NCBI GenBank assembly: GCA_016187225.1
Contig: JACPKC010000010.1
Span: 156,590 to 220,589, forward strand
Direction of reading: 5' to 3'
Source of the DNA: Candidatus Berkelbacteria bacterium
GTDB lineage: Bacteria; Patescibacteriota; UBA1384; JACPKC01
DNA: 64,000 nucleotides
How positions within the stretch are numbered: the stretch's first letter is position 1; each line of letters opens with the position of its first letter. Shown here piece after piece: positions 39,131-52,086 of this stretch. Below the pieces are notes generated by a model that had not been told where the DNA came from, did not search any database, and worked only from the letters and a program-made list of their open reading frames with translations. Position numbers and translations under genes: made by a program.

Positions 39131-39557
39131 GGCTTACCTCTCGGATGCGTTTTAAAATAGGCTTCAGAGTTTTATATGAAATTATTTGCTCAAGTTCAGT
39201 GGGAGTTGCCCATCTAAGATCTAAGATTCTCTCTTTGATTTGTGGTTTTGGCTCGGTTCCTATCAGTGTTTCAAAAAGAAAATGGTCGATGAATTTATGC
39301 ACATTTTCTCCGGGCTGTTCAAAGCGATCGTGGAACCAAAATTCGCTTGTTCCTAGAGAACGAATCAGAATGAGATCATCTAAGCCAACTTCCTCACGAG
39401 TTTCGCGTCGTGCCGCTTGGATAGGTGTTTCGTTAGGTTCAATACGTCCTTTTGGGAATGCCCAACCTCCATGAGAATCCTGAATCACAAGAATTTCGAT
39501 GCCACGTTTAGGATTACGACGCACGACAATACCGCCGGCAGATCGTTCAATGCGCAT
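39114..39557 (-). CDS. NUDIX hydrolase
   Basis: Nudix box GGWAFPKGRIEPNETPIQAARRETREEVGL. Confidence 0.8.
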   Translation of the reverse strand: MRIERSAGGIVVRRNPKRGIEILVIQDSHGGWAFPKGRIEPNETPIQAARRETREEVGLDDLILIRSLGTSEFWFHDRFEQPGENVHKFIDHFLFETLIGTEPKPQIKERILDLRWATPTELEQIISYKTLKPILKRIREVSRELEN

Positions 39558-40686
39558 TGCGAACTTCTTGCACCGCCGATTCTAGCACTCCAACCGTTGT
39601 TAGGGCGGCACGTTCCCAACTGAATTGCTTTGCTCGTTCCAGACCTTTGGACTGTAATGATTTTTGTACATATTGACGTTTTAGAAGCGGGAGGATGCCC
39701 TCGGCGATTGCTTCAGCACGTGTATGATTGACGAGAATTCCAGCTGGCCCTACGATTTCAGGCATCGATGAGATGTTGCTCGCGACAACTGGTATACCCG
39801 AAGCCATGGCTTCGACAATCGGTAAACCGAAACCTTCGAAACCCGAAACAAAAACTAAACAACTGGCGAATCGAAGCCAAGTCGCGTGTGCCTGATCGCT
39901 TAAGTAGCCGAGGAGATGAATGTCGTCACGCGTATTTTGAGGTAGCTCTTTGAGAACTTGTTCAATTTCGGCATAACCATATTGACCAGGTGTGCCAGCG
40001 ATGACTAAATGATGTGGCATCTGGTATTTTTCTTTTAGAATCCGAAAAGCACGCAGGAGTTGGACTGTGTTTTTTTTGGCCTCAAGCCGGCCGATTGAAT
40101 ATAGATAAGGCATGTATTCATGGATGCGCAAAGAGGGCTTGCTGAGTGGATCGACTGGGTGGAAAATCTCGCGATCAACACCATGATGGATTACATGAAT
40201 TTTACTCGCTGGAAATTGAGTATAATGAAGAATATCGCGTTTAGTGGCGGCTGAAAAAGTTATAATCCTGGTCGAGGCGCGCAGAGCTTGAGTAAGACCA
40301 AACTCCTGGTAGACACGCTCGAGTCGACTGTAGTACTCGGGGAAGCGTTTAAATCCCAGGTCGTGAATTGTACTTACGGTTGGCGTTGGATGAATGAGTG
40401 GAACAGTGTGGGAGGGAATAAAAAGAACATCAGTGTGACAGTGCATTAGAAATTCCGCGCTTAATCGCACATGTGTCCACAATTTGGGGAATGGAATAAT
40501 GCGCCAGTCAACTTGCGCGTTGGCGGTTTTAAGCGGTTTCGTACTCAATGCCGGCGCGTAAATTGTATAACGGTGATGCGGCGCCACCCTAAACATTTGC
40601 TCGAAAATCTGGTGCGAGTAATGTTCCGTGCCAGTGTAGTGCGCTTTTGCAATTCGTGAGCCGTCGAGGCCGATATGTAGATTCAT
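39547..40686 (-). CDS. Glycosyltransferase family 4 (GT-B)
   Basis: EGFGLPIVEAMASGIPVVAS motif. Confidence 0.8.
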   Translation of the reverse strand: MNLHIGLDGSRIAKAHYTGTEHYSHQIFEQMFRVAPHHRYTIYAPALSTKPLKTANAQVDWRIIPFPKLWTHVRLSAEFLMHCHTDVLFIPSHTVPLIHPTPTVSTIHDLGFKRFPEYYSRLERVYQEFGLTQALRASTRIITFSAATKRDILHYTQFPASKIHVIHHGVDREIFHPVDPLSKPSLRIHEYMPYLYSIGRLEAKKNTVQLLRAFRILKEKYQMPHHLVIAGTPGQYGYAEIEQVLKELPQNTRDDIHLLGYLSDQAHATWLRFASCLVFVSGFEGFGLPIVEAMASGIPVVASNISSMPEIVGPAGILVNHTRAEAIAEGILPLLKRQYVQKSLQSKGLERAKQFSWERAALTTVGVLESAVQEVRNAH

Positions 40687-40698
40687 ACTTATCTTTCT

Positions 40699-41715
40699 CT
40701 AACTTTTTGCCCAGAGAACAGAGCGCTTGTATGCTTCCAGATGCTCAACAGCCATCCCTGCTCCTTTGACTACGCAAAGCATTGGCTCTTCAGCAAGTTG
40801 GCATGGCACGCCGGTGACTTTAGTAAACAAATCATCAATTTGAGTTAAAAGCGCTCCGCCACCGGTTAAGACGATCCCTTTATCCATCACATCCGAGGCA
40901 AGTTCGGGCGGTGTATGCTGGAGTACGTCCTTCACGGTTGCAATAATTTCGCTAATCGGTTCTTTAACTGCTAAAACTGTATCATTCGTCGTAACGATCA
41001 CACTTTCAGGTAAACCTGTAACGGCATTTGAGCCAGAGACCTCCATCGTTAATTCTTTTTTAGGCGTGATAGCCGCTCCAATCTGTATTTTGACTCCTTC
41101 AGCGGTTTGATCGCCGATGATTAAATTATATTTCTTACGAATATAGCCTGCAATTGCTTGATCGATCTTATTCCCGCCAACGCGTACTGAAGATGAGGCG
41201 ACAATATCGCCCAAAGAGATTACCGCTACTTCAGAGGTGCCACCACCAATATCTATCACCATGTGCCCGCTGGGTGATGCAATCGGAATGCCGGCGCCAA
41301 GCGCCGCGGCTACCGGAGATTTAATAATGTAAGCTGACTTGGCGCCGGAGGCAATGCAGGCATCGATTACAGCGCGGCGTTCGGTACTAGTCGCCCCAGC
41401 CGGCGCCGCGATCATAATTTCAGGGCGAAAAAAGCGTACACGTCCGCCCAGACGATTTACAAAGTAGCGTAACATCGCTTGAGTTACACGGTAATTTGCA
41501 ATCACACCATCTTTTAGTGGATGCACTGCGATAATACTTTCAGGGGTGCGGCCGAGCATTGCCCGTGCTTCTTGACCAATAGCCATGACCTGATTGGTTG
41601 CCGCATCAACGGCAACTACTGCAGGTTCATTGATAACAATGCCCTGACCCGGCACATGAACTAAAACATTTGTTGTTCCTAAATCAATTGCCAGACGGCG
41701 TAAAAAAAACGGCAT
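40699..41715 (-). CDS. mreB: Rod-shape-determining protein MreB
   Basis: LAIDLGTTNVLVHV phosphate-1 motif; start chosen at MPFFLRR (the ORF track extends to 41757). Confidence 0.9.
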   Translation of the reverse strand: MPFFLRRLAIDLGTTNVLVHVPGQGIVINEPAVVAVDAATNQVMAIGQEARAMLGRTPESIIAVHPLKDGVIANYRVTQAMLRYFVNRLGGRVRFFRPEIMIAAPAGATSTERRAVIDACIASGAKSAYIIKSPVAAALGAGIPIASPSGHMVIDIGGGTSEVAVISLGDIVASSSVRVGGNKIDQAIAGYIRKKYNLIIGDQTAEGVKIQIGAAITPKKELTMEVSGSNAVTGLPESVIVTTNDTVLAVKEPISEIIATVKDVLQHTPPELASDVMDKGIVLTGGGALLTQIDDLFTKVTGVPCQLAEEPMLCVVKGAGMAVEHLEAYKRSVLWAKS

Positions 41716-41719
41716 AGCA

Positions 41720-43015
41720 TTAACTTTTCTGTCGGCGGATATTTGCTCCAAGTGCAATTAATTTCCCTGACAGATTTTCGTAGCCGCGATCCAAGTGCTC
41801 CACCCCAGTTAGCCTTGACTTGCCGGACGCAATTAAAGCGGCGATCACGTGTGCCATTCCAGCTCGAATGTCAGGCATTATTACTTCAGCGCCGCGAAGT
41901 TGAATCGGTCCGTTCAGGTAAGCAACGTGAGGAAAATTTTTGTCTGCAAAACGGCATGACTGTTCGGGTGGACACTGAGTGTGAATTTCAACCTCAACGC
42001 CCATAGTCTTAAAACTGGCTAAATAGCCGAATCGGTTATCGTAGACCGTTTCATGAATTATTGATTTCCCCTTTGCGGTAAGTAAGATCATTGTTGAGGG
42101 TTGTTGCCAATCTGTCATAAAACCCGGATGGACATTGGTTGTAATATGAGTGGCTTTAAGTTCCCCATCGGCTTGGAAAAGGATTCCTTTAGCAGTCGTT
42201 TGGGACACACCGCCTATACATTTCACGAACGTTAGAAATTTGTCGAGTACAGCTAGGTGAGCATCTTCAATTAAAACACTGCCGCGAGTGGCGAGAGCGG
42301 CGGCGGCGTATGAGACGGCCTCAATTCGATCCGGCATCACTTTTTGCGCAGCGCCACTTAATTTGCTTTTGCCGAGGATTATCCAGGTCCGGTCATGACG
42401 TTCAATGCGTACCCCAAGACTTCGCAAGAACTTTGCAAGCTCTAAGAGTTCTGGTTCGGTCGCGCCATTTTGAATTCGAGTTTCCTCGGGAATGCGACTT
42501 GCAGTGAGTAGAATTGATTCTGTCGCACCCACACTCGGGTAAGGCAAAATAATTTTTGTGCCACGAAGAGTGTTTGCTTGAATGTCTACGTAGTCACTAA
42601 ACTGAAAAATTTGCGCGCCAAAGTTCTTAAGCGCTGAAAGATGGAAATTAATCGGTCGATTTCCAATGCGATCACCGCTAGGCAGGGGGACGAGCGCTCG
42701 ACCATCGCGATGCAAGAGCGGCCCGACTGCTAAAATTGGTAACCTGTTTGTGCCACTTTGCCGCAAATCGTAGTTATGATGAGATGCAGATGTAACTTCA
42801 ATGCTATCGACTCCGCGCCAATCAACTCTCTTCCCTGCTCGTTCGAGAATATTAGTCGCGATCAAGGTTTCACCATGTCGAGGCATGTTTTCCAAGAGGC
42901 ATGTTTCATCAGTCAGAAGAGTTGCTAAAAGCAACTTACTGGCAAGATTCTTGGCACCTGAAAGTTTAATCGTCCCCATAAGAGGTCGACCACCAATGAT
43001 TTCATAGCTTTCCAT
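41720..43015 (-). CDS. murA: UDP-N-acetylglucosamine 1-carboxyvinyltransferase
   Basis: IIGGRPLMGTIKLSGAKN N-terminus; EPT-fold repeats; 431 aa. Confidence 0.9.
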   Translation of the reverse strand: MESYEIIGGRPLMGTIKLSGAKNLASKLLLATLLTDETCLLENMPRHGETLIATNILERAGKRVDWRGVDSIEVTSASHHNYDLRQSGTNRLPILAVGPLLHRDGRALVPLPSGDRIGNRPINFHLSALKNFGAQIFQFSDYVDIQANTLRGTKIILPYPSVGATESILLTASRIPEETRIQNGATEPELLELAKFLRSLGVRIERHDRTWIILGKSKLSGAAQKVMPDRIEAVSYAAAALATRGSVLIEDAHLAVLDKFLTFVKCIGGVSQTTAKGILFQADGELKATHITTNVHPGFMTDWQQPSTMILLTAKGKSIIHETVYDNRFGYLASFKTMGVEVEIHTQCPPEQSCRFADKNFPHVAYLNGPIQLRGAEVIMPDIRAGMAHVIAALIASGKSRLTGVEHLDRGYENLSGKLIALGANIRRQKS

Positions 43016-43045
43016 TAGTGAGAGCCTATCAGTATACTGTCTTCT

Positions 43046-43750
43046 ATGCTACAACTGCGTGGTCAGACGGGGTGGGATGTAACCGCTTTCATTCTTCAGA
43101 CTGTCCTCACGTTATTGACTGGAGGCATCTTGGTCGCCCAAGCAAATGGCTATGACATTGATTTTCGAACCCTTGCCGTTGAGAAGACAGGGCTTTTAGT
43201 GTTAGATGTTCAGCCAGCTTCTGCTCAGGTTTTTGTGGATGAACAAGAGCTTTTTGAACGGAATGGCGAACGTGTTCGCCAGCTTCTGCCGGGTCCGGTT
43301 AGGATCCAGGTCACAAATGCAGACTACATATCCTGGAATCATTTCGCGGTTATTGATTCGGGGCTGACAAAAGTTTTTTCTAAGGTGAGACTTTTTTTTA
43401 AAGAACCGCTCATAATTAGAACACGCTCGGTGACGAAAAACGAATTTTTATCTCCATTCATTGATTCATCTCTGCGTCTTGATCAGGGAGAAATTTGGCG
43501 AATTCAAGGTGAGACAGCGCGCCTTATTACTCGCCTGTCCAGACCAATTTTAAGCGCGACGATGCTCGATGAGGGCCACGTTGTTTTTCAAATTGAGCGA
43601 GAAATCCACATTCTTGATCTTGATGGCAGTAATGACATCAATCTTTTAACACTTGAATCTGATCGTGCGATACAACTAATTAGTCTGTATGGTGGCAATG
43701 TATTGGGCGTGCTTTCGGAAGGCATTTTAACTGAATATCAAATCAGTTAA
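43046..43750 (+). CDS. Hypothetical membrane-anchored protein
   Basis: N-terminal TM helix followed by a beta-rich region; no confident domain. Confidence 0.45.
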   Translation: MLQLRGQTGWDVTAFILQTVLTLLTGGILVAQANGYDIDFRTLAVEKTGLLVLDVQPASAQVFVDEQELFERNGERVRQLLPGPVRIQVTNADYISWNHFAVIDSGLTKVFSKVRLFFKEPLIIRTRSVTKNEFLSPFIDSSLRLDQGEIWRIQGETARLITRLSRPILSATMLDEGHVVFQIEREIHILDLDGSNDINLLTLESDRAIQLISLYGGNVLGVLSEGILTEYQIS

Positions 43751-44510
43751 TCAGATATATATCTGTGAGACTTGCATAAACTATTAGACGGTTCAAAGTT
43801 GTACCGACTGGCGTACATGTCATCAGAGCGAGTTGGTTTTGTGTCAGAGTTTCGTCCCGCACAACTCGAACTTCCGTTGGCCTTACAACCTCGCTCCCAG
43901 TGACACGATAACGATAGATTTTCTCGTCTTTGCGCACAAAAACTTCGTCACTTGGAGCAAGACGGTCCAGTACGCTAAATACTTTTGTCCAAGGATTACG
44001 ATTCCACCAGTATCCTGAAGAATGGCCAATGATAAATGTTCGTCCAATCTCCCCCGGCAGGACTGATTCACTCGTCTGGACGACACCTTTTTGTAAGCCG
44101 TTTAGTGACTCGACAAGCGGTATTTGCCACTCAATCGGCGCCCTTACTTCGATTGTCGGAATGAGGAGGGTATTATCTTCTAATGTTGGGATGATGTGAT
44201 CGACCGAATAATTTAAGAATGACGATGGGCTTAACCATTCGCTCCCTTCACTGTTTGTAGCTTGAACTAAATCTTTTACAACAAAACGCAAGCGTTCCAA
44301 CTGCGCCGGGCCAGATAGAACCAGGAAGACTATACTCGCAATTCCGACCCCATAAAGAAGTTGTTTAAAGCCATGAAAAAACAGCCGCTTGCGCCGGCTA
44401 CATTCAAAATGCCTCTGAACGTTTAGAGCCTCATTGAAGGTGATAAAACTTTGCATTTTTTGACTCAAAAACACCACACTATACCTGATATAATCTTCCA
44501 TGTCAATCAA
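43743..44510 (-). CDS. Sortase-like transpeptidase 1 (type II membrane topology)
   Basis: N-terminal TM. Catalytic triad context: FIIGHSSGYW (His), ALMTCTP (the TLxTC Cys), NRLIVYA (Arg). Confidence 0.7.
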   Translation of the reverse strand: MIDMEDYIRYSVVFLSQKMQSFITFNEALNVQRHFECSRRKRLFFHGFKQLLYGVGIASIVFLVLSGPAQLERLRFVVKDLVQATNSEGSEWLSPSSFLNYSVDHIIPTLEDNTLLIPTIEVRAPIEWQIPLVESLNGLQKGVVQTSESVLPGEIGRTFIIGHSSGYWWNRNPWTKVFSVLDRLAPSDEVFVRKDEKIYRYRVTGSEVVRPTEVRVVRDETLTQNQLALMTCTPVGTTLNRLIVYASLTDIYLIN

Positions 44511-44708
44511 TAGGTATTATTCATTTTACACAGAGCACTTGACAGAGAGTGAGGATTTACGAGAAAAGAAAATATATCTAACTTGACAAGATCTACGGAC
44601 GTGCTAGTGTCAAACATACGAAGAAAACCGGCAAAAAAGTCTGAATTCTACTTACGAACGTTGAGAGATTAAAACAAATCAACAAATAAGCAAGTTTGGG
44701 AGGTAGGC

Positions 44709-45689
44709 ATGAGGCAAGACGCAACTAGAGCGATTGAACCGCACCAAGGTATCAGAGAACTCATGCGTGGTCTAGCTGTCACGTTTTACATTGCCTCATT
44801 AGTCTTATCACCGGTATCGGCCTTAGCGCTCGAAGGTGATCTGGCGAACACAGAAACTGGCTCCAACTCGACCAATGCAAATGACATTGATCAGGACACA
44901 ACGATTTCATTCAATATTCGCAATGAGGGCGATGCAGATACTGATTTGGATTTTAATTTTAATACTGGCGGCAATACAGTGGTTGATAATACGACCGTCG
45001 GCGATATAACTACCGGTGACATCGAAGTTGAGGCCGAAGTTGAAACGGAGATCAATACCCAGCAAGTCGATCTATCAGAATTAGTTGAGGAATTAAATCA
45101 CCTCGGTGAAGTGAATATCGCATCAACTAACGAACAAACCGGCGCCTCAAGTACCAATGTCAATACAACATCGACAACTAACACAGTCAGCGTAGCTGAA
45201 ACGAACACAGCCAATTCTACAACCAATGTGGTCCTAGCGCTTAACACTGGCGGCAATACAGTTAGTCATAATACGACCGTTGGAGATATAACTACCGGCA
45301 ATATTATTGCCTCTTTGACAGTTAGTAATCGTCTCAATGTTCCCAGTGAAGAACCATCCGTATCGTCAGCAACTCCCACTGGCGGTGGCATGATGCCGAC
45401 AACATCTCCTGCCTCTTCTTCTGCTCCTTCTCAAATCCAGCCAATAACCAGCTCAAACTTACCCGCGGCATTGCCTCAAATTGCTCAAGCCGCCCCAGTT
45501 TCATCTCAAAAGCAATTAGCCACCGAACGTCAAGAATTTTTTCCAGCAGGCGCAAGCGGATCATTGTTGACACTCTTGTTACTTGCGAGTTTTGCTTTAA
45601 TTTCTGTTTATGCGCCCGAACTCATTAACCTCATGGCGCGCCAGAAACATTTTTTGCATCGCTTAAGCGCTGTCTTGCCACTCCTCTAA
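44709..45689 (+). CDS. Secreted modular repeat protein 1 (two units of about 70 aa) with a C-terminal TM anchor
   Basis: RBS GGGAGG. The N-terminus after an N-region is a signal/anchor (FYIASLVLSPVSALA). Two units end in NTGGNTVxxNTTVGDITTGDI. The C-terminus has a hydrophobic helix and a basic tail. Confidence 0.7.
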   Translation: MRQDATRAIEPHQGIRELMRGLAVTFYIASLVLSPVSALALEGDLANTETGSNSTNANDIDQDTTISFNIRNEGDADTDLDFNFNTGGNTVVDNTTVGDITTGDIEVEAEVETEINTQQVDLSELVEELNHLGEVNIASTNEQTGASSTNVNTTSTTNTVSVAETNTANSTTNVVLALNTGGNTVSHNTTVGDITTGNIIASLTVSNRLNVPSEEPSVSSATPTGGGMMPTTSPASSSAPSQIQPITSSNLPAALPQIAQAAPVSSQKQLATERQEFFPAGASGSLLTLLLLASFALISVYAPELINLMARQKHFLHRLSAVLPLL

Positions 45690-45786
45690 TATCTTTGAGG
45701 TCGATACTTTTTCGCTCTCGTATGCGGCGCAAAAGTCATAAACAAGCATACTCCTACAAGTTAAAATATATGGGAAAGGAGTTTTT

Positions 45787-46656
45787 ATGAAACTCAATCT
45801 CATTTCCGCACGTAACCGCATGCGGGTAATGGCTGCAGTTGCGGCAGTTGCCCTCATGAGTGGTGCTGGTTCAGCCTGGGCAGACGTTGACCTAAGCGCT
45901 GGCAACGACATCACAGGACCAGATTCGGTTAATCGCAACGACTTCGACATCACTGACGATCTCGATTTAGATATCGACAATGATGCTGACGCTGACAACG
46001 ACATCGATCTCGATGCCGACAGTGGCGATAACACCATCGATAGCAACACCACGGTTGGTGATTTCGAGGGTGGCGATATTGAAGTTGAAGGCGAATTTGT
46101 GACCGAGCTCAACACGGGTGAAGTTATGCTTGGGGATATGGAACTCGGTGATGTTGATGCTGATTTCAGCAACGATACCACCGGTCCTAACTCCGACAAC
46201 CGCAATACACTCGATATCGATCGCACTGCTGATATTGATGTCGATAATGATGCCGACATCGACAACGACTTTGACGTTGATGTTGATACCGGTGGCAACG
46301 ACATTACTAACAACACAACGGTTGGTGATATCGAAACCGGTGACTTTGAGATGGAACTAACCGTCGAGAACACCGCGAATATGGGTGCGTCACAGGTGAC
46401 GTTGCCAAGTATGGGCGACCAGGATGTCGATGCTGATTTCAGCAACGATACCACCGGCCCTAACTCTGTTAATCGCAACACGCTCGATGTGGACAACACA
46501 TTGAATGTTGATGTCGATAACGATGCCGATGTTGACAATGACCTAGATGTTGATGTCGACAGCGGTGATAACACCGTTGATTCGAACACAACTGTTGGTG
46601 ATATTACAACCGGCGACGTGTCAATTAACTTCAGCTTCACCAATATTTTGAACTAA
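45787..46656 (+). CDS. Secreted modular repeat protein 2 (three D/N-rich units), no C-terminal anchor
   Basis: RBS GAAAGGAG. Signal peptide MKLNLISARNRMRVMAAVAAVALMSGAGSAWA. Three units of TGPNSxNRN...(D/T)(S/T)G(D/G)N(T/D)(I/V)xxNTTVGD(F/I)x(T/G)GD. Confidence 0.7.
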   Translation: MKLNLISARNRMRVMAAVAAVALMSGAGSAWADVDLSAGNDITGPDSVNRNDFDITDDLDLDIDNDADADNDIDLDADSGDNTIDSNTTVGDFEGGDIEVEGEFVTELNTGEVMLGDMELGDVDADFSNDTTGPNSDNRNTLDIDRTADIDVDNDADIDNDFDVDVDTGGNDITNNTTVGDIETGDFEMELTVENTANMGASQVTLPSMGDQDVDADFSNDTTGPNSVNRNTLDVDNTLNVDVDNDADVDNDLDVDVDSGDNTVDSNTTVGDITTGDVSINFSFTNILN

Positions 46657-46735
46657 AATAAAGGAAGTTCGAAGTTTGTGTAGGCTCGAGGAAGTTGCTT
46701 CCTCGGCCTCACAAATATCGAAGCGGGGAGAATAT

Positions 46736-48856
46736 ATGCACAAATCCAGATTTAAGAAATTCCGGCGAGTCTTTGCAATTTCTATGGTCGGACTCATTTT
46801 GAGTTTTTCTTCAATCGCGCCCGCCCTTGCGGTTGGGCCAATCGGACCAGTTGGTCCACAAGGCCCAGTGGGGCCCCAGGGTCAGGTTGGTCCACAAACC
46901 CCAGTTGGCCCCCAAGGCTCTATCGGTCCTCAACCAGTCACAGAACAAGGTCCAGCTTCAACATCAACAGCCGAACCATCAGTGATTTCAAATGAACCAC
47001 CAGTTGCACAACTCACTAATAACTCGAACGTAATAGAGCCAGGCGTTCAAACTTCCACTCCGCTTGAACCAGTCGCACCAATCGAGTCGACCAGCGCTTC
47101 AGCCGACCCGGCGATTGAAGGCACGCAAGTCAGCGCCGGCGAACTTACGAATGAGCAAACTGGCTCGAACTCGGAGAATTCAAATGCCGTCGGTGTCACA
47201 AATTCGGCAATGGTTGAAACGACAAATTCGGCCACAGTCGGCAATAATCTTAATTTAGATGCGGCGACCGGCGATAACGAAGTTACGAGCAATACCATGG
47301 TCGGAAGTTTCACGACTGGTGATATTCAAGGTTCGATTAACATCATCAACGCTACGAATTCAGAATTTGCCCCTGGCAGTACCGTGGGTGTTGGCGAGAT
47401 CACAACAAATGCAAGTGGTGATGTTTTCTTGCTTGATGGAGTGGATCGGTTATATTTACCAAGCAACAATGAAACTGGAGTGAATTCAGCTAATACAAAC
47501 GTTATTAATGACACGAACGTGGTACGTATAATTACAGATAATAATGCCGACATTGATAATGTTATCGATATTAGTGCCGATACCGGCAATAATACGCTCA
47601 CCAGCAACACAGTGCTCGGCGATATTGCGACCGGCACGATCGACCTTTCATTGAACATCATCAATTTACTTAACCTACTTATGCCGGACACGCTTTTTTC
47701 GCTCGACCTTTGGTCAATTTTTGGCGACCTTGCGAGTGATATTATTCTCCCCATGGTCAATGAACTCACCGGCGTAAATTCGGAAAATACAAATTCTGCT
47801 ATCCAAAATACAACTGTCGATGTTACCCTGGCGAATAACGCTCAAATCGATAATATCTTCGACATTCAAACCGAGACAGGCAATAACGCACTCGCCAGCA
47901 ATAGTACTGTCGGAAACATCGAAACCGGCGGCACGCGGATCGAGGGTGGAGTTACAAATATTGCTAACAGCGCCAATCCGACACTTTATCTCTTTAATGT
48001 TTTGGGTGACTGGACTGGGAGCGCTCTCGGATTGCCAGGCGGTAATTTTATTGTGAATGAACTTTCCAGCCTACTAACGGGTCCTAATTCGCTCAATGAG
48101 AATACTGCCCAGCAAACAAATGATGTTTTAGTTGACGTAACCAATACCGCCAACGTTTCCAACCAGCTTTCTTTGAACGCAAATACCGGCGCTAACACGG
48201 TTGAGCGAAATTCAAAAGTTGGCAATATTAAAACCGGCGATATTAATGTCATGGCGAATGTGGTCAATTTCCTTAATTCGTTTGGGAGTGATCTTAAAAA
48301 GTTTTCTCTCAAGGTTGTGAATATTTTTGGAAACTGGAATGGCACCGCGAAATCAACGCCCGATCCAGAAATTCAAACTGCAAGCGCTCTCGCATCGCCA
48401 GAGAACATCGATAATCAGTCATCGCAAAATTCAAACACTGCCGATGTGTGGGTTACACAACCAGTCGCCGCAACTTCAATAGAGATTTCACAAGCATCAT
48501 CAAATTCTACCGGTGAAAACAATCTATCGGAAACTGTGATAGCTAGTGTTGCCGAAGATCAGTCGCCTGAAATGCCAAGTTCGCCAGTTCAAGTTGCAAG
48601 CGCGAATGAAAATACAAGACTTGCGTTTGTTGAGCAAAAACAGAATTCTAATGACGAATCGAGATTATCTGAAGATGCTACACCCGAAGAAAATCTCACT
48701 AAAATTGCTTCAGCTCACATTGAACAACCTGTCTTGGTTGGGGCTGAAAAGAATAAAATAAATTGGCAACTGATACTAGTCTTAAGTCTACTTAGCTTCT
48801 TCGCTTTAATCTGGGGTTCTCTTGAGATTGCCGCCGTTAAATCAATTCGTCGTTAA
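46736..48856 (+). CDS. Large surface protein 3: signal peptide, collagen-like GXY tract, at least four units of about 70 aa, and a C-terminal TM anchor with a KSIRR tail
   Basis: Start at MHKSRFKK with RBS GGGGAGA. GPIGPVGPQGPVGPQGQVGPQ...GPQGSIGPQ. Units TG(S/V/P)NSxNxN...TGxNxxxxNTxxGxxxTGD. The C-terminus is WQLILVLSLLSFFALIWGSL followed by EIAAVKSIRR. Confidence 0.7.
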   Translation: MHKSRFKKFRRVFAISMVGLILSFSSIAPALAVGPIGPVGPQGPVGPQGQVGPQTPVGPQGSIGPQPVTEQGPASTSTAEPSVISNEPPVAQLTNNSNVIEPGVQTSTPLEPVAPIESTSASADPAIEGTQVSAGELTNEQTGSNSENSNAVGVTNSAMVETTNSATVGNNLNLDAATGDNEVTSNTMVGSFTTGDIQGSINIINATNSEFAPGSTVGVGEITTNASGDVFLLDGVDRLYLPSNNETGVNSANTNVINDTNVVRIITDNNADIDNVIDISADTGNNTLTSNTVLGDIATGTIDLSLNIINLLNLLMPDTLFSLDLWSIFGDLASDIILPMVNELTGVNSENTNSAIQNTTVDVTLANNAQIDNIFDIQTETGNNALASNSTVGNIETGGTRIEGGVTNIANSANPTLYLFNVLGDWTGSALGLPGGNFIVNELSSLLTGPNSLNENTAQQTNDVLVDVTNTANVSNQLSLNANTGANTVERNSKVGNIKTGDINVMANVVNFLNSFGSDLKKFSLKVVNIFGNWNGTAKSTPDPEIQTASALASPENIDNQSSQNSNTADVWVTQPVAATSIEISQASSNSTGENNLSETVIASVAEDQSPEMPSSPVQVASANENTRLAFVEQKQNSNDESRLSEDATPEENLTKIASAHIEQPVLVGAEKNKINWQLILVLSLLSFFALIWGSLEIAAVKSIRR
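46835..46933 (+). repeat. Collagen-like Gly-X-Y triplet tract (about 10 triplets, one interruption) inside protein 3
   Basis: In-frame translation of GGNCCN-rich DNA gives GPI GPV GPQ GPV GPQ GQV GPQ (TPV) GPQ GSI GPQ. Confidence 0.7.
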
Positions 48857-49448
48857 ATTCCTACGTTCGATTCTAGCTTTTTCGCTTTTGTTATTATTTT
48901 GGTACGCGCCGCTCATTTTTTCACTTACTCAACCGACCCTGATTGAAGCTGGTGTACTAGGTAAGAGGATTGCTGAAGCGCCGGTCGCTGACACTTTTAG
49001 ATACGAAAATTTAGGGATTGAGGTTCCAATCGAAAAGGCCGCCTGGACATCACCCTTAAATACAAAAGATTGGCGTAAAATTCGCTCGGCGCTCGAACGG
49101 GGCGTAAGTTTGGCATATGAGGGCGAGTTTTTGGAGAGTGTTACCCTTGCCTTTATTACCGGTCACTCGAGCGATGTCTATCCACACAGATATAGTTCCG
49201 TTTTTGCCAGCCTTGGCCAAGCGCAAAGAGACGATAATTTTACCTTGTGGCTTAATCAAAATCCCTACCAGTTTAAAGTTACTGGGGTCAAAATTATTTC
49301 ACCCCAGGATGTTGAAGAGTTTCAGGCCCTGAATCCGGGAGAGAAATCAGACATCCAACGAGTTGCTCTGGTAACTTGCTGGCCGGTCTTGACAACTCGC
49401 TCAAGACTCGTTGTGATTGGAGAACGCAGTTTGAGAGGTAGCTTATGA
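48822..49448 (+). CDS. Sortase-like transpeptidase 2
   Basis: N-terminal TM; AFITGHSSDVY (His), ALVTCWP (Cys), TRSRLVV (Arg). It overlaps the end of protein 3 by 35 nt and the start of the subtilisin gene by 4 nt. Confidence 0.65.
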   Translation: MRLPPLNQFVVKFLRSILAFSLLLLFWYAPLIFSLTQPTLIEAGVLGKRIAEAPVADTFRYENLGIEVPIEKAAWTSPLNTKDWRKIRSALERGVSLAYEGEFLESVTLAFITGHSSDVYPHRYSSVFASLGQAQRDDNFTLWLNQNPYQFKVTGVKIISPQDVEEFQALNPGEKSDIQRVALVTCWPVLTTRSRLVVIGERSLRGSL

Positions 49449-50602
49449 ATAGTTATAAAATTTTTATTACTGGTCTAGCATTGTTGATTTGGTTTAGTAT
49501 TAGCTTGCCTGCAGAAGCAAGTCAAACGCGGGTTCAGGTTGGCGAACGCAAAGTTGTAAAATGTAAAATTTCGCTTGACAAGTGCGCCAACGAACTTCGT
49601 TCACAAGGTGTGCTTGTAAAGAGAAAACTTTCGTTTATTCAAGGCGTGGCGGCGAATTTGAATAGTGAAAGCGAGGCGAAACTTATAGCCACTGGTGTGA
49701 TTCAGAACGCTGACCCAGATATTGAGATTTCTGCTTTAAGCCATCGCGACCAGGCTCAAATTCTAACCTGGAACATTGCCCGAATCCAAGCCGATCGAGC
49801 ACAGGCAAAGAGTACTGGATTAGGTATTGATGTGGCGGTGATTGATACAGGTATCGATCTCGATCACCCGGATTTAATTGGTAGAATTAAGGGCGGTATC
49901 AACCTCATAAATCCTTGGGCCAACGCTGATGACGATAATGGTCATGGCACACATGTTGCTGGAATTATAGCGGCGGAAAATAACGGTTTTGGCGTTCTCG
50001 GTGTTGCTCCGAAGAGCAACTTATACGCAGTTAAAGCTCTTGATCGGCGTGGCCGTGGCTATCTTTCAGATATTCTTGCTGGCATGGAATGGGCGCTCAA
50101 TTCCGGGATTGAGGTGATCAACTTGAGTCTTGGAACGCCGGTTAGCATTCCCACACTTCAGGAGGCCACAACTCGGCTGGTGCAGACTGGGATTGTAGTT
50201 GTTGCGGCGGCTGGCAACGACGGCGCCGCCGTGAATTATCCAGCGGCGTATCCAGGCGTAATTGCTGTTGGCGCAGTCGGTGATGAGGACGAATTACAAC
50301 GTTGGTCATCACATGGATCCGCGCTCGATGTTGTTGCTCCAGGCGATCATATTTATTCCACTTATCGAAGAGATCGGTATCGAACCATGAGCGGAACATC
50401 GATGGCAACCCCTCATGTTGCCGGACTTGCAAGCTTACTTCTTGCTTACCCGTCAGCTTGCGACCAAAATAGCGATAATCAGTGTTCGGCTGAAGAAGTT
50501 GCCGCTCGGATTTTTGCAACGGCAGACAATTTAGATACACCTGGCTACGATTTGACTACTGGTTATGGCGTGATTAATTCAGCTCGAGCCCTAGGACTTT
50601 AG
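49445..50602 (+). CDS. Secreted subtilisin-like serine protease (S8)
   Basis: Triad motifs VIDTGID (Asp), HGTHVAGIIAA (His), GTSMATPHVAG (Ser); signal peptide. Confidence 0.85.
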   Translation: MNSYKIFITGLALLIWFSISLPAEASQTRVQVGERKVVKCKISLDKCANELRSQGVLVKRKLSFIQGVAANLNSESEAKLIATGVIQNADPDIEISALSHRDQAQILTWNIARIQADRAQAKSTGLGIDVAVIDTGIDLDHPDLIGRIKGGINLINPWANADDDNGHGTHVAGIIAAENNGFGVLGVAPKSNLYAVKALDRRGRGYLSDILAGMEWALNSGIEVINLSLGTPVSIPTLQEATTRLVQTGIVVVAAAGNDGAAVNYPAAYPGVIAVGAVGDEDELQRWSSHGSALDVVAPGDHIYSTYRRDRYRTMSGTSMATPHVAGLASLLLAYPSACDQNSDNQCSAEEVAARIFATADNLDTPGYDLTTGYGVINSARALGL

Positions 50603-50647
50603 AACTCATTGTTTGTCCTATTAAAGCCTGTTAATATAGCAGGCGGT

Positions 50648-50734
50648 GCCGCGGTGGCGGAACCGGCAGACGCGCTGGACTCAAAATCCAGTGATCGCAA
50701 GATCGTGTGGGTTCGACTCCCACCCGCGGCACCA
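50648..50734 (+). tRNA. tRNA-Leu (anticodon CAA), class II long variable arm, encoded CCA
   Basis: Acceptor GCCGCGG/CCGCGGC. Anticodon stem-loop CTGGA-CTCAAAA-TCCAG. T-arm GGGTTCGACTCCCAC. Discriminator A, then CCA. Confidence 0.8.
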
Positions 50735-50808
50735 AAACAAAACCGGACGGCTTTTTGAGAGCCAGATCGTGGGTGCTCTTGTTGTGAGCAACGGCTAATA
50801 TCTTATAC

Positions 50809-51285
50809 TTACATCTGGTCGATGCCGGTTGCAAATTGACGTTTATTGTCCCCTACGCTTTCAATTAAGAAGTAACCCAAGCGTGGCGCGGCCGATGCTT
50901 TTTTACTGAATTCGGCATTAGCATTTCCGCTTTCGTTAGTTGAAAAATTACCGATTGACACTTTGGTGCCATTGTAAATGTTATTGCCATCCGGATTCGC
51001 GCCAGTATTCTTGAGACTAATGAAGAAAAGCTTATAAGTTTTCTCTGCAGAGGCACCCTCAAGGTGAACGTCAATTTCATCCTCTGTCACCGATACTTGT
51101 CCTTCCTGCAGAGGATCAGTACCTTTTTTAACGGCATTACTGCCGCAATCGTTACCGCTTTTAGTATCAGCACAGCGAATGAGGTCGCTTTCCATCGAAT
51201 GCCATTCGGAAGCAATTGCGTAGACAGCGCTCGCCGAAAGAGTTAATAAGACAAGTGTTAGAATTACTAATTTCCATGATTTCAT
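50809..51285 (-). CDS. Hypothetical secreted protein
   Basis: AGGAGGTGA RBS and ATG at 51285 (MKSWKLVILTLVLL signal peptide); no recognised domain. Confidence 0.5.
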   Translation of the reverse strand: MKSWKLVILTLVLLTLSASAVYAIASEWHSMESDLIRCADTKSGNDCGSNAVKKGTDPLQEGQVSVTEDEIDVHLEGASAEKTYKLFFISLKNTGANPDGNNIYNGTKVSIGNFSTNESGNANAEFSKKASAAPRLGYFLIESVGDNKRQFATGIDQM

Positions 51286-51349
51286 TTCACTCACCTCCTC
51301 TCTACATTGAATATATTTAAAACAGATGGGATTGTAAATTATTCAATTA

Positions 51350-51967
51350 TTAAATTGGAGTAAAGTGTGCATTGCCCTGCCTGATCAGCGTGGGCGGGGT
51401 AGTTGTGAGATCGACGACAGTTGAAGAAGGAACTTGTGGCAAAGCGCCGGCATTGAGAATCAAATCCGGTTGAGATTCTTGAGGGACGACATGAAGAAAA
51501 TGTTTCTTAATGTCTTCAAGTGAGTATAAGGCGCCTTGTCCAGATAGATTGGCGCTGGTTGTAATATAGGCGTCGTGGAATGTCTGCGAAATAACTTGAG
51601 TGATCGGGTAGTCGGGAATGCGAATACCGATTGTGTTCGTTGGAGAAATACCGAAATCGGCATTGAGTAAGATAAAAGTATACGATCCAGGCAGATAACG
51701 TTTCAGCGTTTCGCGTTGGTAATCGGAAAGCTGGGCGAGCCTTTCAATGTGTTCAAGGTCTTGAGCAATAACAGAAAATTTTTTGCCAGTCTCTCGATCT
51801 TTCAGGGCAAGGAGACGTTGAATTGCGCGCCGATTGCGCGCATCAGTTCCTAAACCATAACAAGTATCGGTTGGATAAATTAAGACACCGCCTCGTTTTA
51901 ACACTTCAACTGCCGCCTGAATAGCGCTCGAATCCGGTTTTTGAGGCGAAAGTGTCAGTATTTTCAT
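51350..51967 (-). CDS. tsaC: L-threonylcarbamoyladenylate synthase (YrdC/TsaC family)
   Basis: GGVLIYPTDTCYGLGTDARN YrdC signature. The start is uncertain; the ORF track extends to 52003, which would abut tRNA-Ala. Confidence 0.75.
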   Translation of the reverse strand: MKILTLSPQKPDSSAIQAAVEVLKRGGVLIYPTDTCYGLGTDARNRRAIQRLLALKDRETGKKFSVIAQDLEHIERLAQLSDYQRETLKRYLPGSYTFILLNADFGISPTNTIGIRIPDYPITQVISQTFHDAYITTSANLSGQGALYSLEDIKKHFLHVVPQESQPDLILNAGALPQVPSSTVVDLTTTPPTLIRQGNAHFTPI

Positions 51968-52010
51968 CATTAGTAACGTACCAGTAAATCTGATAAGATG
52001 CATCTTATCT

Positions 52011-52086
52011 GGGCCGTTAGCTCAGCTGGTAGAGCGCAGCATTCGCATTGCTGAGGTCGGGAGTTCGATTCTCCCACGGTCCACCA
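52011..52086 (+). tRNA. tRNA-Ala (anticodon CGC), G3:U70 identity pair, encoded CCA
   Basis: GGGCCGTTAGCTCAGCTGGTAGAGC D-arm; anticodon loop TTCGCAT; T-arm GGGAGTTCGATTCTCCC; acceptor 3-prime ACGGTCC-A-CCA. Confidence 0.85.

Follow-up and report, generated by a model that had tools for sequence, protein, structure and literature searches.

Collagen-like surface proteins of bacteria include Scl1 and Scl2 of Streptococcus, BclA of Bacillus, and Lcl of Legionella, which are secreted and anchored to the cell and carry a Gly-Pro-rich tract of period three, tens of triplets long, distal to the anchor; the GPT and GPQ triplets of the BclA and phage types favor Pro in X and Thr or Gln in Y. Every third residue of a collagen triple helix must be Gly, and the stability of the helix is known from (Gly-Pro-Pro)10, which melts at about 27 °C, and from hydroxyproline-free Scl2 helices of 75–237 residues, which melt at 23.5–35.6 °C (PMC7824840). 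Trimerization domains of phage and bacterial collagens are exemplified by PfC and PCoil in the work on EPclA (PMC3368898). In Burkholderia, the Bucl proteins carry short tracts of 3–30 Gly-X-Y (GXY) triplets within otherwise unrelated membrane or surface proteins, and these tracts repeat one or two triplet types almost perfectly, in numbers that vary between strains (PMC4565658).

The GXY tract analyzed here lies in a window of Candidatus Berkelbacteria DNA (the whole stretch that was analyzed, 64,000 nucleotides). It shares with Scl, BclA, and Lcl its period and its position in a secreted, cell-anchored protein, with the GPT/GPQ-type triplets its residue preferences, and with Bucl its short length in an otherwise unrelated surface protein. 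Compared with Scl, BclA, and Lcl, it has 11 triplets instead of tens, one Gly break, sub-threshold Pfam and NCBIfam scores, no predicted adjacent trimerization domain, no LPXTG motif, and a degenerate DNA repeat unlike a VNTR. Unlike the Bucl tracts, it mixes codons and residues, follows a constraint of six residues (a hexad), and varies little in length throughout a deep family. The tract belongs to protein 3, and the features of this protein and of its neighbors are as follows.

43743-44510, minus strand: second sortase-domain gene, upstream and divergent (Pfam Sortase, E 1.4e-22), present in L001 too
44709-45689, plus strand: protein 1, upstream paralogue of 326 aa with two modules, a C-terminal hydrophobic segment, and no tract
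45787-46656, plus strand: protein 2, upstream paralogue of 289 aa with three modules and no tract, the conserved partner gene beside the tract protein
46736-48856, plus strand: protein 3, the secreted tract protein of 706 aa (ATG at 46736, stop codon at 48854-48856)
46736-46834, plus strand: signal peptide (aa 1-33), with a basic n-region MHKSRFKKFRR, a hydrophobic core, and a c-region P-A-L-A followed by V33
46835-46933, plus strand: GXY tract (aa 34-66), 11 triplets or 5.5 hexads of G-P-(Q/I)-x-P-(V/I)
46934-47158, plus strand: linker of 75 aa (aa 67-141), of low complexity and rich in P/S/T/E/A by composition
47159-48370, plus strand: four beta-rich modules of about 100 aa each (aa 142-545)
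48371-48757, plus strand: stalk (aa 546-674), of low complexity and rich in S/A/E/N by composition, with pLDDT <50 and not conserved
48758-48856, plus strand: C-terminal transmembrane helix and basic tail (aa 675-706) with a conserved W-x3-E, and the stop codon
48822-49448, plus strand: sortase-domain gene directly downstream (Pfam Sortase, E 5.2e-12), with a listed ORF start that lies within the end of protein 3

The first-pass annotation had placed the tract directly behind a signal peptide, in a surface protein with modular repeats and a membrane anchor, and our analysis bears out this arrangement. The signal peptide has its hydropathy peak at aa 15, an AF2 helix at residues 4–14, and an AxA-type end that is aligned across homologues; the cleavage site, PALA↓V, was assigned from the sequence by the -3/-1 rule, and the tract starts one residue past it. 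The order of signal peptide, tract, and modules is as annotated, but the modules do not follow the tract immediately: the 75-aa linker (aa 67–141) stands between them, with pLDDT <50, no predicted secondary structure in the AF2 model, and a length and sequence that differ between homologues. Each module starts with TGxNSxN and contains [TS]GxN...N[TS].VG...TG; the model predicts the modules with confidence as monomeric units, which structural comparison matches weakly to beta-solenoid or beta-roll folds of a single chain. The proposed C-terminal membrane anchor is upheld by an AF2 helix at residues 677–705, by a hydropathy peak at 675–681, and by the alignment of protein 3 with 27 homologues (28 sequences, alignment A1); no LPXTG motif was found in protein 3 ahead of this helix. 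Residues 26–158 have pLDDT <50 and no secondary structure, and the AF2 helices are limited to the signal peptide, residues 547–553, and the transmembrane segment, with no coiled coil anywhere in this monomer prediction. The tract itself has pLDDT 30–40, a low confidence that is neutral either way because a triple helix cannot appear in a protein folded as a monomer.

In the frame of the 706-aa ORF, the tract reads GPI GPV GPQ GPV GPQ GQV GPQ TPV GPQ GSI GPQ. As first annotated, there are 10 Gly-X-Y triplets at 46835–46933, so that Gly stands first in 10 of 11 triplets, with Pro in X in 9 of 11; the layout is an unbroken run of seven GXY triplets, one in-register triplet in which Thr55 replaces Gly, and three further GXY triplets. 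Across all six frames of the window, a run of seven GXY triplets occurs in the tract alone, and the other runs of at least four are the reverse-complement reading of the tract (five) and a single run of four triplets. In 200 base shuffles, the longest GXY run was five, and runs of at least four averaged 0.8. The complementary strand of the tract reads GPT GPC GPT GPI GPT because GGNCCN is self-complementary, and no ORF of at least 60 aa lies on the reverse strand at this position.

This composition raises the possibility, suggested by the earlier annotation, of a genuine short collagen triple helix, in which three N-terminal tracts would zip together into a trimeric surface filament like those of Scl1/2, BclA, and Lcl. 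The seven plus three GXY triplets and the Pro residues in X agree with such a helix, as do a sub-threshold Pfam Collagen match (PF01391, residues 34–66, E 0.0051), the NCBI name "collagen-like protein" of homologue P0005, and relatives with perfect GXY over 9–13 triplets (e.g., P0018, P0055, P0075, and P0097). Bucl proteins with as few as 3–7 GXY repeats have also been called collagen-like, although their authors caution that short collagen-like regions may not form triple helices (PMC4565658). The PF01391 check proposed earlier nevertheless left the tract under the gathering threshold (17.0 against 27.2 bits); at E <=0.01, this profile matched 4 of 28 family members, and it is not among the precomputed Pfam domains of homologues P0001 to P0032. 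The NCBIfam model NF038329, for the LPXTG-anchored adhesin Scl2/SclB, gave 18.1 bits against an equivalog cutoff of 325. The suggested coiled-coil and trimerization prediction likewise turned out negative: the AF2 monomer model contains, beside the tract, no predicted folded or coiled-coil domain of the kind that characterized bacterial and phage collagens possess (Scl V domain, BclA C1q-like, coiled coil, or phage PfC), and the modules appear as monomeric units with single-chain fold matches.

The tract is also short of the length benchmarks for a stable hydroxyproline-free triple helix. With 33 residues, fewer prolines, Thr in place of one Gly, and no known hydroxyproline route here, it should by analogy form a helix weaker still than those benchmarks, which oppose a stable helix of such a size (PMC7824840). 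A weak or transient trimer could nevertheless form in this near-perfect member, since tethering to the membrane concentrates the chains locally and cold groundwater is the source of many Patescibacteria. Our literature search found no link between collagen-like proteins and Patescibacteria, and the family was not found described in titles and abstracts of the literature on sortase, the Candidate Phyla Radiation, and surface proteins.

The homologues bear most directly on this question. In a search of 5.8 billion proteins, the best match was 43% identical over 95% of the query, and no match exceeded 53% in local identity; the homologues are 43–53% identical in local alignments and cover up to 95–100% of the intact ORF. 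Scans of genomes and metagenome contigs for close relatives of the tract protein returned only distant ones (26–39% identity). The family profile matches more than 4000 sequence clusters, strong members of the family number roughly 770, and the tract was confirmed in 84 of the 168 members examined; these 84 form a wider sample that includes representatives sharing no more than 50% identity with one another. Both in the 27 aligned homologues and in the 84-member sample, the conserved unit is the hexad G-P-(Q/T)-x-P-(T/V) and not the triplet. In alignment A1, G40, G46, and G52 are invariant and G58 nearly so, whereas G37, G43, G49, and G61 are not conserved. Position 1 of the hexad is Gly in 96%, position 2 Pro in 62%, position 3 Gln in 44% or Thr in 24%, position 5 Pro in 61%, and position 6 Thr in 55% or Val in 30%. 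Position 4 is variable (Gly 39%, Glu 14%, Gln 8%, and Val, Thr, Asn, and Ala 7% each), and its Gly share, well above the Gly frequency of typical proteins, suggests some pull towards GXY.

The median share of Gly-initial triplets among the 84 members is 69%; perfect GXY is found in 6 of them, and the 10 of 11 in the window far exceeds the family median. For 24 of the 84, no unbroken GXY run exceeds two triplets. Two of these hexad-only proteins, P0022 and P0016, proved on checking to be positional orthologues, each located directly after an orthologue of protein 2, and they do not keep Gly at every third residue; P0104 is another hexad-only orthologue. A glycine kept only every sixth residue is incompatible with triple-helix packing, which makes a short, stiff proline-rich tip likelier than a true collagen triple helix. 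The collagen-like sequence reported for this protein is confirmed as a sequence feature, and the trimeric-filament triple helix derived from it is disfavored by the family-wide Gly spacing and further by the 33-residue length, the Gly break, the missing trimerization domain, and the failed Pfam and NCBIfam thresholds. We regard this helix as unlikely, although it keeps a larger share of our belief than the other alternatives considered below.

The tract is N-terminal in 80 of the 84 members, mostly within a few residues of the end of the signal peptide in the homologues that were read directly; the internal tracts, in P0023, P0027, P0029, and P0057, come with an extra N-terminal region and contain 7–9 unbroken triplets. 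Tracts of 7, 9, 11, 13, 15, and 17 triplets occur in 11, 20, 26, 16, 5, and 1 members, respectively, so the family clusters at 9–13 triplets and its mode, 11, is the length in the window. The first-pass annotation had expected length variability by slipped-strand mispairing, and a slippage-prone contingency repeat, with length variation as its main property, or a collapsed repeat or similar artefact of assembly would fit the tandem array found by TRF, the spread from 7 to 17 triplets among distant relatives, and the strain differences in the collagen-like regions of Bucl, Scl, and BclA (PMC4565658). The array repeats every 18 and 36 nt, in keeping with the hexad, and TRF detected no 9-nt period. 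Its units, however, are no more than 62–76% identical, exact repeats reach at most 12 nt, and Gly is encoded by all four of its codons; such a degenerate repeat, together with the length clustering, is a poor fit to a slippage-prone locus and lends the expected variability no support. The alignment of the tract is gap-free against P0007, P0008, P0010, and P0011, homologues with 11 triplets each, and the ORF is intact. With this alignment and no exact DNA repeat above 12 nt, nothing in the sequence points to misassembly of the tract. Taken together, we consider a contingency repeat or an artefact very improbable.

The gene neighborhood was compared between the window and the homologous loci. 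The genes immediately upstream of P0022 and P0016 encode orthologues of protein 2 at 40–44% identity, and similar-sized genes lie upstream of P0006 and P0021; the position of protein 1 is taken by genes of similar size in L001 and L002. L001 and L002 likewise have a sortase gene at the downstream position, which L009 and L010 lack there, and an S8 subtilase gene follows the locus in the window and in L001 and is absent in L002, L009, and L010. One alternative to a structural tract is a recognition or processing element, whose hexad would be read by a partner such as the neighboring sortase or S8 subtilase, a glycosyltransferase that modifies position-6 Thr, or a host-surface receptor. Specific recognition is suggested by the invariant spacing of Gly, by the residue types conserved at hexad positions 3 and 6, and by how strictly the tract is placed at the mature N-terminus; the sortase genes that flank the locus here, in L001, and in L002, and the S8 protease that follows it here and in L001, also agree with such an element. 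However, tract-bearing orthologues occur in L009 and L010 with neither neighbor and in L002 without the S8 gene, which weakens the candidate roles of the tract as an S8-protease propeptide or as a sortase-dependent element. The hexad does not resemble an LPXTG-type motif, and a hidden LPXTG-like motif (xPTG) was rejected on the wrong Pro-to-Gly spacing, both as read from the sequence. Position 6 is Val or Ile throughout the tract in the window and never Thr, so glycosylation of Thr at this position is ruled out in this protein. A recognition or processing role for the hexad is accordingly given a low probability.

We favor, with a little more than even confidence, the reading that the tract is a fixed-length polyproline-II-type N-terminal tip of an uncharacterized Patescibacteria surface protein family. 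The tract would be the copy, in this protein, of a conserved N-terminal motif of four to eight G-P-(Q/T)-x-P-(T/V) hexads, and it looks like collagen because position x happens to be Gly in four of its five hexads (G, G, G, T, and G along the tract). Following Sec export and a predicted signal-peptidase cut at ALA↓V, the tract would become the extreme N-terminus of the mature protein, where Pro at every third residue would impose an extended left-handed polyproline-II conformation of about 10 nm. The tract and the 75-aa P/S/T/E linker would jointly make up the outermost tip of the protein, and its four beta-solenoid-like modules would be held by the 130-aa low-complexity stalk and the C-terminal transmembrane helix. 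The role of the tip would be that of a spacer of defined length, a PxxP-type contact surface, or both, rather than that of a trimerizing collagen helix. The cleavage site, the polyproline-II conformation, the topology, and the role of the tract are all inferred from sequence and prediction.

The tract agrees with polyproline-II spacers as a descriptive class, having regular Pro, no hydrophobic core, and no DSSP helix or strand. Other spacers of this class are the EP/KP region of TonB, the proline-rich regions of pneumococcal PspA and PspC, and the EP and GPEET repeats of trypanosome procyclin; these segments are short and periodic, have no hydrophobic core, and are regarded as extended rods or spacers or as exposed binding surfaces on the cell. 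Their repeats are of period two or irregular and contain no invariant Gly, whereas the tract has a strict six-residue period, an invariant Gly, and a place at the mature N-terminus. The hexad with its invariant Gly, narrow length range, and fixed mature N-terminus might even constitute an undescribed structural or recognition motif, possibly a non-collagen polyproline-II assembly or a partner-binding ladder, at the distal tip of a widespread, Patescibacteria-specific surface apparatus formed by the protein 2/protein 3 pair. This last proposal is speculative and we hold it to be improbable; if it were true, such a tip might help these episymbionts attach to host cells.

The label "collagen-like" is routinely given to short GXY runs, and one homologue of this family already bears it. 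A comparison of orthologues can separate a real triple-helix constraint, with Gly every three residues, from a look-alike with Gly every six, and thereby guard against wrongly inferred trimeric fibres and phase variation. By itself, the tract is a modest result. The envelope proteins whose outermost end it marks form a very large Patescibacteria family that is unannotated, and if the protein is used for host contact, the conserved tip would be an obvious first target for mutagenesis and binding studies.

Protein 3, the 706-aa tract-bearing surface protein, is encoded on the plus strand from an ATG at 46736 to a stop codon at 48854-48856 (the mechanical ORF list begins this frame at an upstream TTG, 46676). 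In the protein 3 frame, the 99 bases of 46835-46933 read GPI GPV GPQ GPV GPQ GQV GPQ TPV GPQ GSI GPQ, consisting of seven uninterrupted Gly-X-Y (GXY) triplets, an in-register Thr replacing Gly, and three further triplets. Among all frames of the 64-kb window, a GXY run of this length is unique to the frame of the tract; the other runs of at least four triplets are its own reverse-complement reading (five) and one unrelated run of four. Shuffling the bases 200 times produced runs of at most five triplets, with a mean of 0.8 runs of at least four triplets. In-frame translation and the run search thus confirmed the tract and its coordinates in the first-pass annotation. Its placement just after the signal peptide also held, as the tract begins one residue past a canonical signal-peptide end (basic n-region, hydrophobic core, and P-A-L-A). 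The modules do follow the tract, but not directly, since a linker intervenes before the first of them. The regions of protein 3 are as follows:

aa 1-33, plus strand: signal peptide
aa 34-66 (46835-46933), plus strand: tract
aa 67-141, plus strand: low-complexity linker of 75 aa, rich in P, S, T, and E
aa 142-545, plus strand: four beta-rich modules of ~100 aa each, each starting with TGxNSxN
aa 546-674, plus strand: low-complexity stalk of 130 aa
aa 675-706 (48758-48853), plus strand: C-terminal transmembrane helix and basic tail

The C-terminal helix carries a Trp followed four residues on by a Glu (W-x3-E), a motif that most of the 28 aligned homologues share; a conserved charged residue within an anchor is unusual.

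The named homologues of protein 3 come from Patescibacteria and Candidatus Berkelbacteria. Alignment of protein 3 with 27 homologues revealed no variation at G40, G46, and G52 and almost none at G58, giving one Gly per six residues, while the intervening glycines G37, G43, G49, and G61 are not conserved. The repeat unit is the hexad G-P-(Q/T)-x-P-(T/V).

Residue frequencies at each hexad position, computed over five aligned hexads
Position 1: G 96%
Position 2: P 62%
Position 3: Q 44%, T 24%
Position 4: G 39%, E 14%, Q 8%, V/T/N/A 7% each
Position 5: P 61%
Position 6: T 55%, V 30%

When 1.84 billion cluster representatives were searched with a family profile, 4376 members passed E ≤ 1e-3 and 768 passed E ≤ 1e-30. 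We examined 168 members (protein 3, 32 homologues, and whichever of the 150 top-scoring profile hits were new), half of which (84) have a recognizable tract, N-terminal in 80. In these 84, the median share of triplets starting with Gly is 69%; only six are perfect GXY, and in 24 the longest uninterrupted run is at most two triplets, as in P0104 (GPK TET GPK APT GPK ...) and P0076. Two such hexad-only members, P0022 and P0016, are positional orthologues of protein 3 rather than unrelated paralogues, because each lies directly downstream of a protein 2 orthologue (40-44% identical). For the DNA of the window tract, TRF and the repeat finder gave periods of 18 and 36 nt rather than 9, which agrees with a six-residue unit.

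In a collagen triple helix, every third residue sits buried on the helix axis and must be Gly for the chains to pack (PMC7824840). The tract family is not under triple-helix selection, because E, Q, K, T, or V is tolerated at half of the third-residue sites and the other half is invariant. This hexad comparison among homologues decides how the tract is read.

The main alternative is that the near-perfect window member makes a triple helix that is weak or facultative, which we consider unlikely. Gly begins 10 of its 11 triplets, Gly at hexad position 4 is enriched well above its frequency in typical proteins, and the six perfect-GXY relatives, possible cold habitats, and membrane crowding would also favor such a helix. 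So would four relatives (P0023, P0027, P0029, and P0057), a subfamily of 850-950 aa with an internal tract (~aa 284-354) behind an extra N-terminal region of ~250-330 aa; these tracts are nearly perfect GXY, with 7-9 uninterrupted triplets, making this subfamily the most probable place for a genuine triple helix, should the family contain one. On the other side, the Pfam Collagen model PF01391 scored 17.0 bits against the tract, below its threshold of 27.2, and matched only 4 of 28 members at E ≤ 0.01, while the NCBIfam Scl2/SclB, Lcl, and SclA models gave 10-18 bits versus cutoffs of 325-500. The tract is 33 residues long; for comparison, the melting temperature is near 27 °C for (Gly-Pro-Pro)10 and 23.5-35.6 °C for hydroxyproline-free Scl2 helices of 75-237 residues (PMC7824840). 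Characterized bacterial and phage collagens depend on an adjoining trimerization module, such as PfC and PCoil in EPclA (PMC3368898), and none was predicted within 90 residues of the tract. The authors of the Burkholderia Bucl study noted that short CL regions may fail to form triple helices (PMC4565658). The collagen-like reading therefore stands for composition and placement, but not for the triple helix, given the Gly pattern, the sub-threshold PF01391 score, and the tract length.

The annotation had also proposed length variability through slipped-strand mispairing, which the tract DNA does not bear out. The repeat units share 62-76% identity, exact direct repeats reach no more than 12 nt (GTTGGTCCACAA, two copies with a spacing of 36 nt), and Gly is encoded by all four of its codons. 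Such DNA is a poor substrate for slippage and an improbable site of assembly collapse. Tract length stays in a narrow band among members mutually ≤50% identical. Across the 84 tract-bearing members, 7, 9, 11, 13, 15, and 17 triplets occur in 11, 20, 26, 16, 5, and 1 members, the 11 of the window being the mode. No close relative of protein 3 was found in protein, genome, or metagenome collections. That the tract is a contingency repeat or an assembly artefact is highly improbable.

Upstream of protein 3 lie two paralogues that lack the tract, proteins 1 and 2, which have two and three modules, respectively. The genes around this trio are as follows:

43743-44510, minus strand: sortase-domain gene flanking the trio
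48822-49448, plus strand: sortase-domain gene flanking the trio, downstream of protein 3
49445-50602, plus strand: S8 subtilase after the trio

None of the trio, protein 3 included, carries an LPXTG-type signal, despite the two flanking sortase-domain genes. The order protein 1, protein 2, protein 3, sortase was found again in two related loci, L001 (GCA_964423885.1) and L002, while in L009 and L010 the protein 2/protein 3 pair alone is retained and the downstream gene is a non-sortase. A role of the tract as a recognition or processing element is improbable, because the sortase and S8 neighbors are not conserved alongside it.

L001 has the order MreB, a MurA-type EPSP-synthase-family gene, a 234-aa gene, sortase, trio, sortase, S8, and Sua5/YrdC. 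The window at ~39500-52000 resembles it in ORF order and sizes (upstream ORFs of 352, 431, 234, and 255 aa; a downstream 217-aa ORF at 51350-52003), a likeness based mostly on gene sizes, as the flanking window ORFs are unannotated. Downstream are tRNA-Leu(CAA) (50648-50734, plus strand) and tRNA-Ala(CGC) (52011-52086, plus strand). Opposite protein 2, a Ser-, Thr-, and Leu-rich 326-aa ORF (45663-46643, minus strand) is probably artefactual, a by-product of the coding-strand D/N/T-rich repeat.

We lean toward reading the tract as a fixed-length, polyproline-II (PPII)-type N-terminal tip; its sequence features are observed directly, and its cleavage site, conformation, topology, and role are inferred. 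Pro at every third residue would keep its 33 residues extended over ~10 nm, with one face of Pro, one of Q/T/V, and one alternating between Gly and x. Once the signal peptide is removed, it would form the far end of the protein, whose tether is the C-terminal helix, and there it may act as a spacer, as an exposed PxxP-like contact surface, or as both.

Although its composition and placement recall bacterial collagen-like proteins, the tract fails the tests that define that group. A closer parallel would be the proline-rich PPII spacers in TonB, PspA/PspC, and procyclins, from which it differs in its strict six-residue period with an invariant Gly. Our literature search turned up nothing on collagen-like proteins from Patescibacteria, and, judging by titles and abstracts, none of the papers on CPR sortases and surface proteins describes the protein 3 family. 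The broader significance lies in the very large and unannotated family of modular surface proteins, with its conserved protein 2/protein 3 pair; this is a matter of the locus and not of the tract.
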